A DNA stretch of 64,000 bases from an uncultured Candidatus Saccharibacteria bacterium (GCA_964621395.1 CAZULS010000001.1:64615-128614), one strand, 5' to 3'; shown: positions 1 to 7,202, counted from the stretch's first letter. Notes: generated from the letters alone by a model not told the origin. Made by a program: numbers and translations.

Positions 1-518
1 TTGTCGCACGGGTCGTAGCAGCCATCACAGCCACACGGGTCGTAATAACAGGAATCGTAATAGTAGTAATCCTCGTAGACGTACGTGGTATCTTCGTAGT
101 AATAGTCATCATACCCCCAATCGTCATAGCCATGACTGTAATACCCATCGTAAAAATCATCGTAGTAGTTGTACCCCCAGTCGTTGTTGTATGAGAGATT
201 GTAGTAATTGGAGTCGTCCCAGATAATCTGAGGTTCAATCACGATTTCGTGTTCGTACACGACACCATAATCACCTCCATACTCACCATACTGACCATCG
301 TTATCCCAGTCATACGTGCCGCCGAAGCCATAGTATCCGTCATTGTTGTAGTCAAAATCCCAATTACCATGATCGTGATATCCGTAATCAACATCTGATG
401 CACCGGTGCCCCAATTATCGGAGCCGGTGCTTGCCCAATATTCCGTATTATCGGAATCAGCAATATATGCCATTGCCACAGAGGCCGGCATAAGAAGCGA
501 CGCGAGAAGCGCAATCAT
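1..518 (-). CDS. Partial CDS (C-terminus beyond window): secreted, extremely Tyr/Asp/Gly/Trp-rich low-complexity protein. N-terminus MIALLASLLMPASVAMAYIADSDNTEYW..., then DYGYHDHGNWDFDYNNDGYYGFGG... and a C-proximal Cys cluster CYYDPCGCDGCYDPCD.
   Basis: I translated the minus strand manually from the ATG at 518-516. The frame stays open to position 1. It is absent from the ORF track, which appears to list only ORFs with an in-window stop. Hydrophobic signal-like N-terminus. Confidence 0.5.
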   Translation of the reverse strand, partial: MIALLASLLMPASVAMAYIADSDNTEYWASTGSDNWGTGASDVDYGYHDHGNWDFDYNNDGYYGFGGTYDWDNDGQYGEYGGDYGVVYEHEIVIEPQIIWDDSNYYNLSYNNDWGYNYYDDFYDGYYSHGYDDWGYDDYYYEDTTYVYEDYYYYDSCYYDPCGCDGCYDPCD

Positions 519-837
519 GGCACCAAGCGCCGTGACGGTGCGGTACGCGCGCGCATGCATGGTATATGCAAACATATTGTTCATACGAATTGAATTTGCT
601 GCGAGGAATGTGCATCTGCGCACTCCCCACCATCAAATGATTATTTCACCGTGCGGGACAACGCACAGTGTTGATAATGCCTCTATTATACACAAAAGGA
701 GCATTTTGTCAATACCCCTTAAAGAACCTCTTTTCTTACCCCTTTCCTACCATATATAAATTGATTTGTAAATACCTTTGGACATATTGAAAGGGCAGCC
801 TGAGCTGCCCTTTGTTTGTTGTGCCGATTTACCCTGT

Positions 838-1695
838 CTATCGGCGATAATACCTAGGGTGGCGCGGACCACGCCCCTGATGGGAACGTGAGCCCCATTT
901 TTGGACCCTACCTGCCCTCTTCTGGTAGAGCAGGCGTTTCTCGCCCGTCCGGGGATTTACCTGCCAGTGGCGTTCAACTTTATGAACGCTTTTTTTGGCC
1001 CTTACCCTCTTGGGAGCAGGAGCAGGGGAAAGCTTCTGCCGGTGGTAATAGGTGTTTCCCGTCCTTATAATCACTTTGGGACGAAAAACTATCCTTTTTT
1101 TAACCTTTACCGGCTGCTGTCGCCCCACGATAACTGCCTTAGGGGCAACTCGGTCCTTCCTCCAGATCTCCGTGAGAACCACGTTTCCGCAATTCTCTTT
1201 AGTGACGACGCCTGGCTCGTTCTGAAGAACGACCCTCAAGCGCCAACCACCGGGGATGTCCACCTGGACACCAGGACCGACCATGTTTTGTCCCGTCCTG
1301 TTTCTGTACACATGCCCAGACGGTGCCATGTGCACTCCTCTGGCATATGACATACCGAGAAAGTACGCCCCTTCGGGCACATAGACCTTTCTCGGCTCCC
1401 AGAGCTGTCGCAGAACCTGGCGCTGAACGGAATCGAAATCACCCGACTCCATTCTGCCAGGAACTCGCTGCGAGAACATCTGGAATATGCGCTCGGTCAC
1501 CCGAGTTGCATACGCCGGATACTCGTCGCGAGAGAGGCCAGCAAGGCCACCCTTCCAGTCCGAACCACTCCCTATTGGATACTTGTACTCAAGCACCCGA
1601 TAAGTGTGTTGCCGAATATTTACCGTCTCGGCACAGACGTTCGTCGTGAACGCAAAAAGCGCAACGACGAGGAAAAGTAAAGTTTTTTTCATCAC
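838..1695 (-). CDS. Secreted hypothetical protein, 285 aa, with a signal peptide (MMKKTLLFLVVALFAFTTNVCA) and a strongly basic Lys/Arg-rich C-terminal tail.
   Basis: ORF track translation. Signal peptide followed by a folded-looking region, then a K/R-rich tail. No family recognised. Confidence 0.45.
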   Translation of the reverse strand: MMKKTLLFLVVALFAFTTNVCAETVNIRQHTYRVLEYKYPIGSGSDWKGGLAGLSRDEYPAYATRVTERIFQMFSQRVPGRMESGDFDSVQRQVLRQLWEPRKVYVPEGAYFLGMSYARGVHMAPSGHVYRNRTGQNMVGPGVQVDIPGGWRLRVVLQNEPGVVTKENCGNVVLTEIWRKDRVAPKAVIVGRQQPVKVKKRIVFRPKVIIRTGNTYYHRQKLSPAPAPKRVRAKKSVHKVERHWQVNPRTGEKRLLYQKRAGRVQKWGSRSHQGRGPRHPRYYRR

Positions 1696-1793
1696 AAGCC
1701 CCCTCCTTGGGGCATAGGCTTTTCAAGTTACATAAATTATCCTGCCACCATTCTATACCAAAAGAATGGTTTTGTCAAGACCTTGGTAGCTTA

Positions 1794-2032
1794 TGGCTTA
1801 TAGCTTTGAGCTTATAGGAAAAAGAGCGGCGACCGAAGGTCGCCGCTCTTTCTTTTTTGTTCAAACACAATTACAGCGAAGATCCCCGTTCAAGCCGGGA
1901 ATGACAGTATAGATTTGTTTTCTAGGGCGCACGCAGTGCGCCCTTCTAAAAACTACCAACTAATCACTAAAAACTTCCCCATTCTCTCACCACACTCAAA
2001 TAACCACTCCCTCTAAGCTCAAAGCTATAAGC
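1794..2032. repeat. Inverted-repeat-bounded intergenic element. The 22-bp IR GCTTATAGCTTTGAGCTTATAG (1 mismatch) encloses a terminator hairpin, a degenerate GTCAT-hairpin unit and a GTTGGTAG-like motif. A solo copy of the IR lies at ~51075-51096.
   Basis: Left arm 1794-1815 is the reverse complement of 2011-2032. A second copy of the arm, gcttatagcttctagcttatag, is near 51075. Confidence 0.5.
1823..1858. terminator. GC-rich hairpin agagcggcgaccgaaggtcgccgctct flanked by A/T tracts on both sides; a bidirectional rho-independent terminator shape.
   Basis: Perfect 11-bp stem with a GAAG loop and T-tract, seen in the sequence. Confidence 0.5.
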
Positions 2033-2060
2033 TAAAAGCTCGCTATGCTATACTATACCC

Positions 2061-3764
2061 ATGATTACCTTCCGCGATCCGAAACAAAAAGAACGCTACG
2101 AAGAGCTCCATAAACAAGAAGAGGAGGAATTGGTTCGTGTGCTCTCGGCACGCTATGGCGTCCCGTCGACCACCCTTTCGTCCGCTACTGTAAACACCGA
2201 TGCACTCAAGCTCGTTGCCGAAGCGGAGGCACGCAAAGCAGGCATTGCTCCTTTCGCGCTTCTCGGCAAAAAAGTAAAAGTCGCCGCTCTTTCGCCAAAA
2301 ACCAATGAGGTAAAAAGTATACTGGAAGATCTTTCCCGTCGCGGCTATGAGCCGGACATTGTCATGGTCTCCCACGACAGCATCGAGCAGGCATGGTCGC
2401 TGTATCCGGAAATTTCCCGTGCTGAGGAAACAGAGGCCGGTGTGTTTGACATTTCCGGAAGCCAGCTTGAGTCCATGTCGTCGGATATCGCAAAAATCAG
2501 CGACATCACCGCTACCATCGGCTCAATCACCGAGGGCGGTGCGCGTAATAAAGTGACTCGCATCCTTGAAGCACTTCTCGGGGGAGCTATTGCTATCGAT
2601 GCATCCGACGTGCACTTCGAGCCGGAAGAGGGTGGGGCTCGTGTGCGTATTCGCGTTGATGGTGTGCTTGTCGACACAGCCTCGCTCAACACGGATGTCT
2701 ATTCTTTCATCCTCTCTCGTGTCAAGCTTCTCTCCGGACTCAAGCTCAATGTGACGAAAACATCGCAAGACGGCCGTTTCAGTATTCGTCTTCATGATCG
2801 CAATATTGAAATTCGTGCATCGGTGATTCCGGAGGAACACGGCGAATCCATCGTACTCCGACTTCTCGACCCCACATCGCTTGGGCTCGCTTTTGAAGAT
2901 CTCGGTATTGACCCGGCACTCTTTGAAGTGATAAAGCGAGAAATTTCCCGCCCGAATGGCCTTATTCTCACCACCGGTCCGACAGGATCAGGAAAAACAA
3001 CCAGTCTCTACGCATTCTTAAAGCATGTGCATCGTTCGGAGGTAAAAATCATTACGATTGAAAATCCGATTGAATACCATCTCGACGGCATCACACAAAC
3101 ACAAACCAATCTCAAAGAAGGCTACACCTTCGCCCAAGGACTCAAAACCGCCCTCCGCCAAGACCCGGATGTGATCATGGTCGGTGAGATTCGCGATAGC
3201 GACACAGCCCAAACAGCACTCAATGCCGCCTTCACCGGACACCTTGTCTTCTCCACGCTCCACACCAACAATGCCGCCGGTGTTATCCCGCGCCTGGTAA
3301 ATCTCGGTGTGAATCCAAAGCTTATCTCTTCAGGATTAAATCTTTCTCTCGCACAGCGACTCGTGCGTCGCGTGTGTCCTTCCTGTCGTCGTCCGTATGA
3401 ACCAACGGAAGAAGAAAAAACCCTCATGAAGGGTATTATCGAGCGTTTTAACGCAAAGCGCGGTACCGAAGAAACGCTCGAGGGACACACGCTCTATGAA
3501 GCAAACACTGACCCGGATAATACATGTCCGGAATGTGGTGGGCTTGGGTATAAAGGGCGCATCGGTGTCTATGAAGGTATCCTCACCGACGGTGCCATTG
3601 AGCGCGTCGTTCTCTCCGACATGCTCACCGAACGAGAGATACGCAAGGCGGCCGAAGCGCAGGGAATCCCAACGATGGCCGAGGATGGTATTGTGAATAA
3701 AGTCCTCGCAGGTTTGACCTCATTTTGGGAACTTCGTCGAGTTGTGGATTTGGATGAATCGTGA
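2061..3764 (+). CDS. pilB: Type IV pilus assembly / type II secretion ATPase (PilB/GspE family)
   Basis: Walker A GPTGSGKTT; GspE-type Asp/His boxes; C-terminal tetracysteine CPSC...CPEC zinc-binding motif; 567 aa. Confidence 0.85.
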   Translation: MITFRDPKQKERYEELHKQEEEELVRVLSARYGVPSTTLSSATVNTDALKLVAEAEARKAGIAPFALLGKKVKVAALSPKTNEVKSILEDLSRRGYEPDIVMVSHDSIEQAWSLYPEISRAEETEAGVFDISGSQLESMSSDIAKISDITATIGSITEGGARNKVTRILEALLGGAIAIDASDVHFEPEEGGARVRIRVDGVLVDTASLNTDVYSFILSRVKLLSGLKLNVTKTSQDGRFSIRLHDRNIEIRASVIPEEHGESIVLRLLDPTSLGLAFEDLGIDPALFEVIKREISRPNGLILTTGPTGSGKTTSLYAFLKHVHRSEVKIITIENPIEYHLDGITQTQTNLKEGYTFAQGLKTALRQDPDVIMVGEIRDSDTAQTALNAAFTGHLVFSTLHTNNAAGVIPRLVNLGVNPKLISSGLNLSLAQRLVRRVCPSCRRPYEPTEEEKTLMKGIIERFNAKRGTEETLEGHTLYEANTDPDNTCPECGGLGYKGRIGVYEGILTDGAIERVVLSDMLTEREIRKAAEAQGIPTMAEDGIVNKVLAGLTSFWELRRVVDLDES

Positions 3765-3778
3765 GAATATACAAAAAG

Positions 3779-3953
3779 GTACGAAGTACGAACGCCTACG
3801 AACATACGAATCTTGTTTCTTGAAAGAAAACGGCTGTCATTCTGAACTTGATTCAGAATCCAGGAATAAATCTTATGGACTTCTAATCAAGTTGGGAATG
3901 ACAGCAAAAATGGGTGATGGAGCAAAAGCCATGTTCGTATGTTCGTATTGATT
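3779..3953. repeat. TACGAA-array inverted-repeat cassette. (TACGAA)n at 3779-3812 and (TTCGTA)n at 3936-3953 bracket a GTCAT-hairpin unit (3835-3863).
   Basis: gtacgaagtacgaacgcctacgaacatacgaatc ... gttcgtatgttcgtattg; internal tgtcattctgaacttgattcagaatcc. Confidence 0.6.
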
Positions 3954-4278
3954 TGTAGTTCGCAACCCAAAAGAAAAGAACGCATAATCCTCTAAACAAA
4001 ACTTTAAGTAAGACACTAAAAGGAGAATATACACTGGGGATAGTGTCAGCACTTTCCACGGAAAGTGAAACACCAACACGTCCTTGCATATATTCCGATC
4101 ATTTGTTTAGAGGATTATACGTTCTTTTGCATCAAAAATATTCGTCTTTTTTGAGATGCAAAACAACACGCCGCATCAATCTTTCGATTATGCGGACGAT
4201 TTCGAATATTTTGTTTTCAAGTGCGTGGTGTCACTGCCGACTACCAACGTGCGGATATCCTATCATACTTGAAAAAAT

Positions 4279-5313
4279 ATGTCAACCCCCTCTCCTCACA
4301 ACAATACTCCACCTGAAAACACGCCCAAAGACGAGCAAGTCCTGGATACAACGCTTCGTCCGACAAAATGGAACGACTATATCGGACAAGAACAAATTAA
4401 AAGCAATCTCCAAATCCTCCTTTCGGCGGCACATGAGCGCAACCAAGCGCCCGAACACCTCCTTTTTTATGGCCCTCCCGGTTTGGGGAAGACAACACTC
4501 GCGCATTTGATTGCGAAAGAAATGAATGCACAAATGAAGAGCACGTCGGGGCCGGCAATTGAGAAGGTGGGTGACCTTGCATCTATTCTCACCAATCTTT
4601 CCCCGGGTGATATTCTCTTCATCGACGAAATCCATCGCTTGAATAAGCTCATTGAGGAAATTCTCTATCCGGCAATGGAAACAGGTTCACTCGATATCAT
4701 TATCGGCAAAGGACCTTCCGCGCGTACTATTCAGCTCGACCTTCCTCCCTTTACCTTAATTGCCGCAACCACACGTGTCTCTCTGCTCTCCTCCCCTCTT
4801 CGCTCACGATTTTCAGGCGGCACATTCCGACTTGAGTTTTATACCGACGAAGAGATTGCACACATTGTAAAACGTTCTGCCGATATCTTGGGTATCAATG
4901 CTTCAGACGACGCAGCGGGAAAAATCGCCGAGCGAAGCCGAAAAACGCCCCGCACCGCCAATTATCTCTTAAAGCGATGTCGCGACTTCGCCCAGGTCCA
5001 CGGCAATTCCCTTGATGAGGGCGCGGTAAGTGGCGCACTCGAGCTTCTTGCCATCGATGAGCTTGGCTTAAATGCGGGCGACCGTGCCATTCTCGATACC
5101 CTTATCACCAAATTCGGTGGCGGACCGGTAGGCCTGAAGACAATTGCTGCGGCAATCTCCGAAGAAGAGAGCACGATTGAAGAAGTTCACGAACCATACT
5201 TGCTTCAACTCGGTCTCATCGACAGAACCCCACGCGGACGCATTGCCACAGAGAAAGCATATCGACATCTGGGACATGACATACCCGATGACGCGCAAGG
5301 AAAGTTACTGTGA
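4279..5313 (+). CDS. ruvB: Holliday junction branch migration helicase RuvB
   Basis: [25 protein letters not shown], and the RuvB-type C-terminal winged helix; 344 aa. Confidence 0.9.
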
Positions 5314-5317
5314 CATA

Positions 5318-5510
5318 ACAATACATTACGAATTACGAATATAATACGAATCTACGAATGGGTTATATGACTGCTTCGGACTTGCGACTTCCCCATATCA
5401 CGATATATTTTAAAGTGACATTTCTCTGGGACATCTTCTGAGAAAAACAAAACGTAAACCTAAAACTCCAAATAGAGTATTCGTATATTCGCGATATTCG
5501 TAATTCGTAA
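5318..5510. repeat. TACGAA-array inverted-repeat cassette, with (TACGAA)n at 5318-5360 and (TTCGTA)n at 5478-5510.
   Basis: acattacgaattacgaatataatacgaatctacgaatgg ... attcgtatattcgcgatattcgtaattcgtaatt. Confidence 0.6.
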
Positions 5511-5555
5511 TTTACCTTATTCTCCTACCATATTAACCTCCTAACCTCCTACCAT

Positions 5556-6086
5556 ATGTCTGGACATAATAAATGGTCAAAGATCAAACATAAAAAAGCT
5601 GCGACTGACGCGGCAAAGAGCAAGGTATTCGGCAAGATTGTGAAACTCATTGCAGCTGAGTCAAAGAAGTGCGGGGGCGATGTAAATGCACCGGGTTTGC
5701 GTGCAGCGATTGAAAAAGCAAAAGCGGTAAACATGCCATCGGACAATATCGATCGTGCGGTGAAGAAAGGCCAGAGTGCTGATCACACGGCAATGGAAGT
5801 GGTGCAATATGAAGCATACGGCCCCGGGGGCTGCGGTATCATCATTACCGGACTCACCGATAATAAAAACCGCACCGCCCAGGAGATAAAACATGCATTG
5901 TCGAAACAGGGCATTGACCTTGCGGCTCCCGGGAGTGCTTCGTGGATGTTTGAAAACACGCAGGGAGACTTCACCCCCGCAACCACCATTGCCCTTGGAG
6001 ATGACGATATGGAAAAACTCGAGAAACTTGTTGAGGTACTGGAAGAAAACGATGACGTGCAAGAGGTGTTCACAAACGTAGGATAG
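5556..6086 (+). CDS. yebC: YebC/PmpR-family protein, shortened to 176 aa (lacks about 70 aa of the C-terminal domain relative to canonical ~245-aa members)
   Basis: N-terminus MSGHNKWSKIKHKKAA...YEAYGPGG and C-terminal DDVQEVFTNV match the family. The middle region is missing. Confidence 0.75.
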   Translation: MSGHNKWSKIKHKKAATDAAKSKVFGKIVKLIAAESKKCGGDVNAPGLRAAIEKAKAVNMPSDNIDRAVKKGQSADHTAMEVVQYEAYGPGGCGIIITGLTDNKNRTAQEIKHALSKQGIDLAAPGSASWMFENTQGDFTPATTIALGDDDMEKLEKLVEVLEENDDVQEVFTNVG

Positions 6087-6292
6087 TTACGAACATACGA
6101 ATACATACCATTAATTGCTCCGTTTCTTCAATCCTCAAATCAGACCTCAATATCTAAAGTAAGACCTCTGCCACTTTATTTTATAATGAGTGAAAGAAAT
6201 TTACACGCTTTAATCAGGAGTACAACACAAAAACATGCTTAACCCTCAAACACTAGCTTCGTATGTTCGTATGTGTTCGTACTTCGTACCCC
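6084..6292. repeat. TACGAA-array inverted-repeat cassette between yebC and ruvC
   Basis: ttacgaacatacgaatacatacc ... cttcgtatgttcgtatgtgttcgtacttcgtacc. Confidence 0.6.
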
Positions 6293-6293
6293 T

Positions 6294-6770
6294 ATGCGTA
6301 TTATAGGTATCGACCCAGGTTTTGATCGTATTGGTATTGCGATTGTTGAGAAAGAGGACGGCTCTGATGTACTTGTGCATTCCACCTGTGTCGTTACCGA
6401 CCGCACCGATTCCTTTGCAGACCGACTCGTGACAATTGCCACGGAGCTTCGCACCCTCATTGAAAAGTACCAGCCCGACATGTGCGCTATCGAAACACTT
6501 CTCTTTGCGGCAAACAAAAAGACAGCCATGCAAGTAGGTGAGGCTCGTGGCGCTATGCTTCTCGTCTGTCGAGAAGCGCATCTCGATATTGTGGAATATT
6601 CACCGCTTCAGATAAAGACGGCCCTCACCGGCTATGGAAAGGCGGAGAAGTCTCAGGTTGAACAAATGGTGCGACAATTGGTGGATGTCCCCGGAGGAAA
6701 ACGACTAGACGATGAGATGGACGCTATCGCCGTTGGACTTACCGCTCTCGCACACGTGCATCATCACTGA
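6294..6770 (+). CDS. ruvC: Crossover junction endodeoxyribonuclease RuvC
   Basis: MRIIGIDPGFDRIGIAIVE... with RuvC catalytic Asp/Glu positions. Start moved to the MRIIG Met inside track ORF 6273..6770. Confidence 0.85.
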   Translation: MRIIGIDPGFDRIGIAIVEKEDGSDVLVHSTCVVTDRTDSFADRLVTIATELRTLIEKYQPDMCAIETLLFAANKKTAMQVGEARGAMLLVCREAHLDIVEYSPLQIKTALTGYGKAEKSQVEQMVRQLVDVPGGKRLDDEMDAIAVGLTALAHVHHH

Positions 6771-6830: not shown

Positions 6831-7012
6831 GGTACGAAGTACGAACACATACGAACATACGAAGATAACCTCTTAAAAGGGGAGTTCTCGTCATTCCTGG
6901 CTCGACCAGGAATCCAGTAACAAACTCCTAGATCCCGCATCAAGTGCGGGATGACAGTAAAAATGAGGACTACGTCAAAAGCTGTATTCGTATGTTCGTA
7001 GTCATTCGTAGT
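6831..7012. repeat. TACGAA-array inverted-repeat cassette carrying two GTCAT-hairpin units (6890-6916 and 6931-6956)
   Basis: ggtacgaagtacgaacacatacgaacatacgaag ... gtattcgtatgttcgtagtcattcgtagtcc; internal gtcattcctggctcgaccaggaatc and gatcccgcatcaagtgcgggatgaca. Confidence 0.6.
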
Positions 7013-7202
7013 CCACTTGCAAAGAATATCAAAATGGATTACAAATAGTGTAATTATACGTTCATCATTTTTTACTTGTTTCTATGTCTATCGAAACCAC
7101 TCTTTACGAAGAGGATACACTCCTTGAAGGACTTGGTGAAAATGAAATAGTTGAAGATGGATGCGACGAAGTGACTCACGAAAATTTTGATATATAACAT
7201 AC

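Follow-up and report, generated by a model that had tools for sequence, protein, structure and literature searches.

Proposals for how CPR/Patescibacteria recognise and hold their hosts mostly invoke type IV pili and large proteins of the cell surface. In staphylococci, the SD-repeat MSCRAMMs (ClfA, SdrC-G) carry near-perfect dipeptide and DNA repeats by the wall anchor, as a stalk that spans the wall. Antibody CDR-H3 loops and the minimalist Tyr-based synthetic binders are dominated by Tyr, Ser, Gly and Asp, the CDRs being short, structured and somatically diversified. Fibrillar adhesins are built in the usual order of signal peptide, adhesive domain, stalk and anchor, and one of their stalk domains is CLIPPER, the renamed DUF11, which is CnaA-like and often isopeptide-bonded (PMC12617251). 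For Tyr-rich, prion-like low-complexity domains of the FUS/EWS/hnRNPA2 type, PMC5704491, among others, describes the distributed tyrosines as interaction “stickers”. In CPR bacteria themselves, FN3-domain surface proteins have been proposed as host-recognition candidates (PMC13059738).

The gene described here starts close to the edge of a 64-kb stretch of CPR DNA (64,000 nucleotides, “the window”). Its product is like the CLIPPER fibrillar adhesins in domain order, in the variable copy number of its stalk domains and in being surface-exposed. It departs from them at the distal end, which is an extreme Tyr/Asp low-complexity region (LCR) with no recognised folded adhesive domain, and in having only one CLIPPER domain instead of a long array, an anchor that is a C-terminal transmembrane (TM) helix and not of the LPXTG/sortase, OmpA-like or archaeosortase kind, and a CPR bacterium as its host. 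On balance we lean towards a gene whose 5′ end lies at the window edge and whose product is a fibrillar-adhesin-like surface protein, membrane-anchored as type I and carrying a functional sticky tip.

A preliminary description of the window had noticed, on the minus strand, an edge-truncated ORF absent from the ORF track. Our reading of window positions 1–1500, with translation of 3–650, confirms the frame: it is open over 3–584 (minus strand) and runs off the window start, and only the window edge cuts it. The ORF is missing from the listing because the listing omits ORFs that run off an end. Counted from the most upstream ATG, the 5′ part of the CDS (3–584, minus strand) comprises 194 codons, and its product begins MNNMFAYTMHARAYRTVTALGAMIALLASLLMPASVAMA, followed directly by YIADSDN. 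Downstream of the preceding stop codon the translation reads RMNNMFAYTMHARAYRTVTALGAMIALLASLLMPASVAMAYIADSDN, and at the window edge it terminates with YYYEDTTYVYEDYYYYDSCYYDPCGCDGCYDPCD. The in-frame ATGs at 584, 575 and 560 are each chosen by some gene caller (for P0001-type proteins, P0121 and P0005, respectively) and all take in the Arg-containing n-region of the signal peptide, whereas the start proposed earlier, at 518, corresponds to residue 15 in the gene as called by NCBI and is thus an internal Met. The composition first reported is present in the translated frame: the signal peptide is followed by 155 window-encoded residues rich in Y (22.6%), D (19.4%), G (12.9%), N (7.1%) and W (4.5%), with no K or R, and five Cys fall within the last 16 of them. 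No other ORF or frame in the 64-kb window reaches 10 or more Tyr per 60 residues.

Upstream of the candidate start codons, by about 100–125 nt, lies a σ70-type promoter-like site (685–712, minus strand; TTGACA-16 nt-TATAAT, 12/12 matches), in a region that is 90% identical in L081, the locus of the homologue P0001. Between this site and the stop codon of the upstream gene (838) there is a GC-rich hairpin with a 10-bp stem (790–813), probably a terminator that separates two transcription units. A second near-consensus σ70 promoter (1750–1778, minus strand, 11/12) precedes that upstream gene, which encodes 285 amino acids, and the −35 regions of the two promoters share a similar block of 24 nt (693–716 and 1759–1782, 79% identical).

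The full-length gene was recovered, as the preliminary description had advised, by extension beyond the window. An exhaustive phmmer search of 1.84 billion representatives returned P0001 (795 aa, 63% identical, E 2e-26) and P0002 (505 aa), and a search with P0001 found P0005, an NCBI protein of 710 aa from a 360,312-bp contig, residues 1–186 of which are identical to the window product counted from ATG 560. P0121 (715 aa), a cluster member of P0005 and identical to it apart from the start chosen, led in turn to the contig that encodes it, L082, a Logan contig from SRR8146441 that is 100% identical over window positions 1–3275 and reaches 1825 nt past the window, with the whole gene at L082 2701–4848. 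The gene thus runs 1572 nt past window position 1, its product measuring 710–718 aa depending on the start used. There is no stop just beyond the window, where the frame goes on for 524 more codons. Because P0005 and L082 carry the gene onward, the truncation is a cut of the window and not a contig end: the edge is interior to larger contigs.

A chance open frame, or an artefact of assembling repetitive DNA at a contig end, would explain why the ORF is absent from the ORF listing and why other frames hold overlapping ORFs. We give this practically no credence: the absence follows from the rule on edge-running ORFs, the source contig is 360 kb long, a separate assembly yields a 100% identical sequence, and the promoter upstream is perfect. 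Furthermore, orthologues at 50–90% identity conserve the frame, the signal peptide and the downstream domains, and all eight maintain an open frame in spite of many indels. The full-length gene refutes the artefact reading, and the minus-strand ORF is a genuine gene.

Some searches had made the fragment look isolated. The neighbours (the 285-aa ORF and PilB) had no record on exact look-up, neither genome_contigs nor metagenome_contigs contained an exact 57-nt DNA pattern, and a word-index protein search with the 194-aa fragment gave no match, though the identical P0005 is in the same database. The word-index miss is a failure of sensitivity on low-complexity sequence and no sign of orphan status; other low-complexity queries may falsely look like orphans in that search. 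The main practical outcome is that the “orphan” fragment is part of a 710-aa protein which has been deposited before, with its domains annotated. Close relatives are named “uncharacterized repeat protein (TIGR01451 family)” by JGI, and one is called “DUF11 domain-containing protein” by NCBI; P0005 itself scores under the TIGR01451 cutoff in NCBIfam (18.7 against 24).

In P0005 numbering, used from here on, the protein opens with a Sec-type signal peptide, MHARAYRTVTALGAMIALLASLLMPASVAMA (468–560, minus strand; residues 1–31, 31 aa from ATG 560), with a basic n-region, a hydrophobic core and an A-x-A c-region, cleavage being predicted after A-M-A. AlphaFold2, given an alignment of 48 sequences, models a helix at residues 2–23, and an equivalent N-terminal hydrophobic segment is found in 8/8 orthologues. 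The acidic LCR, rich in Tyr, Asp, Gly, Asn and Trp and with no Lys or Arg, follows at 51–467 (minus strand; residues 32–170), interrupted by a short hydrophobic island of ordinary complexity, VVYEHEIVIEPQIIW (219–263, minus strand; residues 100–114). At the junction of the LCR and the first FN3-like domain lies the Cys cluster, of which the window holds the part at 3–50 (minus strand), C171-x4-C-x-C-x2-C-x3-C. The complete cluster (residues 171–190) has the spacing C-x4-C-x-C-x2-C-x3-C-x4-C, and its sixth Cys (190) is past the window edge.

Beyond the window, three FN3/Ig-like β-sandwich domains (residues 198–495), a Pro-rich linker and a CLIPPER/DUF11 domain (516–641) lead to a modelled helix with a hydrophobic TM segment (670–705), all three modelled parts having an AlphaFold2 pLDDT above 88. 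After the C-terminal hydrophobic segment, FFPTTFVGWLFLAILLLILVILV, the chain ends in a short, basic, Lys-rich tail. Pfam places DUF11/CLIPPER (PF01345) at residues 539–633 (45.0 bits against a cutoff of 24.6, E 1.6e-11), and Pur_ac_phosph_N (38.7 bits) and Ig_3 (32.6 bits) both exceed their 30-bit cutoffs. The top Foldseek matches in the PDB are FN3 tandems (E 1e-11 to 1e-13) and the Ig-like domains of the adhesin PrgB. By eye only, the K in RIIKTVEN and the N in SSNSVYIRV are candidates for an isopeptide bond in CLIPPER; some CLIPPER domains are without the Lys-Asn bond (PMC12617251).

That the protein has a signal peptide, an Ig-like stalk and a C-terminal membrane anchor we hold with great confidence. 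Of the features by which fibrillar-adhesin-like proteins are recognised, the secretion signal, the tandem Ig-like/FN3-like stalk and the surface anchor are all present; a recognised distal adhesive domain is absent, residues 32–196 having no relative in Pfam or the PDB. The suggestion, made from the fragment, of a secreted or adhesive cell-surface protein thus sits well with the signal peptide, the three FN3/Ig-like domains, the CLIPPER/DUF11 domain and the C-terminal TM anchor, from which we infer that adhesion may be its role. The accompanying suggestion, a bacteriocin- or RiPP-like precursor composed of a leader and a modified Cys/Tyr-rich core, owed its appeal to the superficial look of the truncated fragment, with its leader-like N-terminus and Cys cluster. 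It falls, and its probability is negligible: the full gene specifies 710 aa with FN3, CLIPPER and TM segments, the supposed leader is an ordinary Sec signal peptide, and genes for maturation or export do not flank it. In none of five loci do modification, export or immunity genes lie next to the gene.

The LCR itself, about 140 aa long, is polyanionic, with a net charge of −39. AlphaFold2 gives it a pLDDT of about 33 and no secondary structure, and the whole of residues 24–191 stays below 50 (10-residue block means of about 30–47). On this model the distal region of about 160 residues, closed by the Cys cluster, is probably disordered; a shallow or unalignable alignment may be an alternative cause of the low pLDDT. 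Window 3–584 (minus strand) matches zero Pfam families at E ≤ 1, the Tyr/Asp region alone finds no relative in the PDB (best E 0.42), and an NCBIfam search with the LCR alone gives nothing significant. At the DNA level, the middle of the LCR, which contains the island, is without counterpart in the P0001 and P0002 loci and has a weak partial match in the P0004 locus.

The DNA that encodes this region is not repetitive in the way first supposed. It had been described as built of periodic TACGA units, yet TACGA occurs only eight times on the coding strand in 1–584, each time as a TAC-GAN codon pair (Tyr-Asp/Glu). Synonymous codons for Tyr and Asp are mixed (TAT 14, TAC 22; GAT 19, GAC 11), and Tandem Repeats Finder (TRF) detects only two arrays of about two copies, with units of 9–12 nt.

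As to similar YD-rich proteins, about 10 of the 121 proteins fetched have a Tyr-rich N-terminus, namely P0001–P0007, P0009, P0027 and P0121, all of them from the closest clade. By their relationships the orthologues form one small clade near Candidatus Yonathbacteria, and because the clade is this small (about 10 proteins among billions), the trait is not general to CPR. In the eight orthologues compared, the LCR is 89–163 aa long, with 21–41% Y, 13–37% D+E, 0–1 K+R and a net charge between −12 and −49, and it is followed in 8/8 by a Cys cluster (2–6 Cys) before the first FN3 domain. The more distant homologues P0012, P0013, P0016 and P0024, from a sister clade, have a folded Ig-like N-terminal segment in place of the LCR.

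Between alleles, the tip is a patchwork. Residues 1–85 of P0005 are 78% identical to P0001 and 31% to P0002; residues 86–150 are 32% and 51% identical, respectively; and residues 151–196 are 39% and 98% identical. Identity over the first FN3-like domain reaches 89% with P0001 and 93% with P0002, and the remaining stalk, CLIPPER and the anchor are 80–84% identical to P0001; comparison at the DNA level repeats the mosaic pattern of the tip. The LCR, judged by these alignments, is mosaic between alleles and the fastest-evolving part of the protein, against a stalk that is 80–93% identical. The number of FN3-like units is also variable, from three to at least six among the orthologues compared (P0001, P0003, P0004, P0006 and that of L083), and therefore stalk length varies along with the tip. 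In L083 (10466–11529), 3.5 tandem copies of a 303-nt unit, with 75% matches, make up the acidic FN3-like stalk domain. A metagenome scan for further alleles found one close locus and distant FN3 proteins; the close locus looks like another record of contig L001 (both 43,010 bp).

What these comparisons indicate, then, is an LCR that keeps its composition but not its sequence, its length or its allele relationships. The conserved composition and the mixed codon usage together point to selection on protein composition rather than simple DNA slippage. A passive low-complexity spacer or entropic brush, which arises and persists mainly because Tyr/Asp codons duplicate and slip and the free end of the protein tolerates it, while the real function resides in the stalk domains or a partner protein, would be expected to change freely in length and sequence as this region does. 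It would also suit the absence of AlphaFold2 structure and the short internal duplications (36–39-nt periods at about 2.2 copies in L083, besides the 9–12-nt units of the window), and neutral drift would likewise give fast evolution and mosaicism. Such a spacer would not be expected, however, to keep so extreme and specific a composition (Tyr-dominated, essentially without Lys or Arg, and with the Cys cluster at its end) between orthologues with stalks as far apart as about 50% identity. The mixed synonymous codons and near-absent DNA repeats again argue for selection on the protein, and related proteins have a folded distal domain in its place. We consider a passive spacer unlikely, though worth keeping in mind.

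The tip as a functional segment is supported because the sister-clade homologues have a folded Ig-like domain at the position of the LCR; that its function is adhesive is, on what the sequences suggest, an even bet. Once exported via Sec and freed of its signal peptide, the protein would be held in the cell membrane by the C-terminal TM helix, with the short basic tail in the cytoplasm; the extracellular CLIPPER/DUF11 and three FN3/Ig-like domains form a stalk, and at the far end of it is the Tyr-dominated polyanionic region encoded in the window. In our proposal the LCR would be the functional tip, a multivalent “sticky” segment whose Tyr and Trp side chains could contact the envelope of a host cell or some other surface (a host association being assumed from the phylum), possibly joined by divalent cations that Asp residues bridge. 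Selection appears to hold the composition of the tip, while its sequence and length, and the copy number of the stalk, would turn over fast through small duplications, indels and recombination between alleles, a diversification that might reflect changing targets or evasion.

The same acidity could instead serve, in line with the metal or biomineral binding also suggested in the preliminary description, a polyanionic cation-binding layer that buffers or sequesters Ca2+, Mg2+ or Fe3+, or makes contact with a mineral surface, with no biological partner; the ligands proposed are Asp/Glu carboxylates, Tyr phenolates and the Cys cluster. All eight orthologue LCRs share the strong negative charge and near-total lack of basic residues given above, the whole ectodomain of P0005 is acidic throughout (136 D+E against 41 K+R), Cys clusters are conserved at the junction, and a marine (TARA) assembly is the source of at least one relative. 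The P0005 allele even contains two D-x-[DN]-x-[DN]-G-like (DxDxDG-like) motifs, DYNNDG at residue 70 and DWDNDG at residue 84, but 0/7 of the other orthologue LCRs have them, and motifs confined in this way to one allele make a defined Ca2+ site unlikely. What the compositions conserve most is Tyr rather than Asp (in P0006, 29% Y and only 10% D), the Cys vary in count (2 to 6) and spacing, which is ill suited to a fixed metal site, and there are no metal-related genes nearby. Non-specific binding of cations by the polyanion may still occur; a cation layer as the main role strikes us as rather unlikely.

Other low-complexity and Tyr-rich systems resemble the sticky tip of a surface adhesin, the reading we prefer, to different degrees. 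With the SD-repeat MSCRAMMs, P0005 shares an Asp-containing LCR of variable length in an anchored surface protein; unlike theirs, its LCR is distal, Tyr-dominated, without a strict DNA repeat and closed by a Cys cluster. The sole likeness to the Rhs/teneurin YD-repeat (PF05593) is the frequent Tyr-Asp dipeptide, and membership was rejected: there is no Pfam match at E ≤ 1 and, by TRF, no repeat of about 20 residues, and disorder is predicted instead of a β-shell. The prion-like domains of FUS/EWS/hnRNPA2 are similar in being disordered, in having Tyr set among Gly/Ser/Asn and in conserving composition over sequence, but they are eukaryotic, intracellular and nearly uncharged, whereas the P0005 LCR is extracellular, bacterial and acidic at about a quarter of its residues; the likeness carries no homology.

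By analogy only, the LCR also recalls CDR-H3: a Tyr-dominated, hypervariable, exposed segment supported by Asp, Gly and Ser on an Ig-like scaffold, although, unlike CDRs, it is about 140 residues long, unstructured and diversified between lineages. A bolder reading along these lines would make the tip a minimalist, hypervariable, Tyr-based recognition module on an Ig-like stalk, reshuffled between alleles by recombination and small duplications, with which this ultra-small, episymbiotic lineage tracks or switches the host surfaces it attaches to; it would be a functional analogue of antibody CDRs or of phage tail-fibre tips, but made of disordered low-complexity sequence. We offer it as speculation, and think it a long shot.

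Our literature searches found no earlier description of Tyr-rich regions in CPR proteins. The P0005 gene is a compact, clearly organised candidate for CPR attachment, whose product joins an unusual, fast-evolving tip to a stalk and an anchor behind a signal peptide. Should the Tyr/Asp region mediate attachment, it would be a bacterial example of a binding module that is disordered and encoded by composition, and would give host-range studies a handle; if it has no such role, it would be one more LCR in an uncharacterised surface protein.

The neighbours of the gene are TsaE, an orphan secreted protein and PilB. PilB, a T2SSE-type ATPase (2061–3764, plus strand; T2SSE E 6e-106), opens a housekeeping stretch of PilB, RuvB, YebC and RuvC (2061–6770, plus strand) in an order that matches the TARA contig L083, whose DNA is 79–87% identical to the window over PilB, RuvB and YebC. 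The relatives of this PilB are all from Parcubacteria/Patescibacteria MAGs, the closest being NIOZ-UU136 (93%, L001) and a Candidatus Yonathbacteria (71%, L002); by these matches, the organism that carries the gene is placed in the ultra-small Parcubacteria (CPR). The order of a divergent PilB, the orphan secreted protein and the Tyr/Asp-rich protein is found in L001, L002 and L083, with TsaE coming next in L002 and L083, and in L081 and L082 the orphan gene is likewise followed by the Tyr/Asp gene. A Tyr-rich protein of the P0005 kind is encoded at just two of the 80 PilB loci fetched, L001 and L002; L051 has an FN3-repeat homologue at its PilB locus.

The conserved orphan upstream neighbour (838–1695, minus strand; 285 aa), given here as context only, has an N-terminal signal peptide, a core of about 150 aa with an E-CGN motif common to its counterparts in L001, L002 and L083, and a basic C-terminus, the last 110 aa holding 34 K+R against 4 D+E (25–33 K+R in orthologues). 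Searches of Pfam and NCBIfam gave no match for it, and the sole tblastn matches at E ≤ 1e-3 are L081 and, in L082, the identical copy; a gene at its position is also present in L001, L002, L081 and L083. The juxtaposition of an acidic Tyr-rich tip with a gene for an Arg-rich tail is suggestive. Two observations nevertheless speak against an electrostatic pairing of the basic tail with the acidic LCR: the two genes have separate promoters, and in three orthologues the tail is preceded by a hydrophobic segment, possibly a TM helix, because of which the tail may be cytoplasmic.

Finally, the intergenic TACGAA arrays, to which the Tyr/Asp coding DNA had been likened, are a separate family of inverted-repeat elements. 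Four of them, of about 165–205 nt each, lie at 3778–3968 (PilB|RuvB), 5327–5491 (RuvB|YebC), 6088–6292 (YebC|RuvC) and 6831–7021 (between RuvC and the next gene). No Rfam family or tRNA gene was found in the 64-kb window, these elements included. Each has 2–4 TACGAA units at a spacing of 8–9 nt in one arm, an inverted TTCGTA array in the other and a core of roughly 100 nt between the arms, and the copies are 74–85% identical to one another; in this layout the TACGAA/TTCGTA elements look MITE/REP-like.
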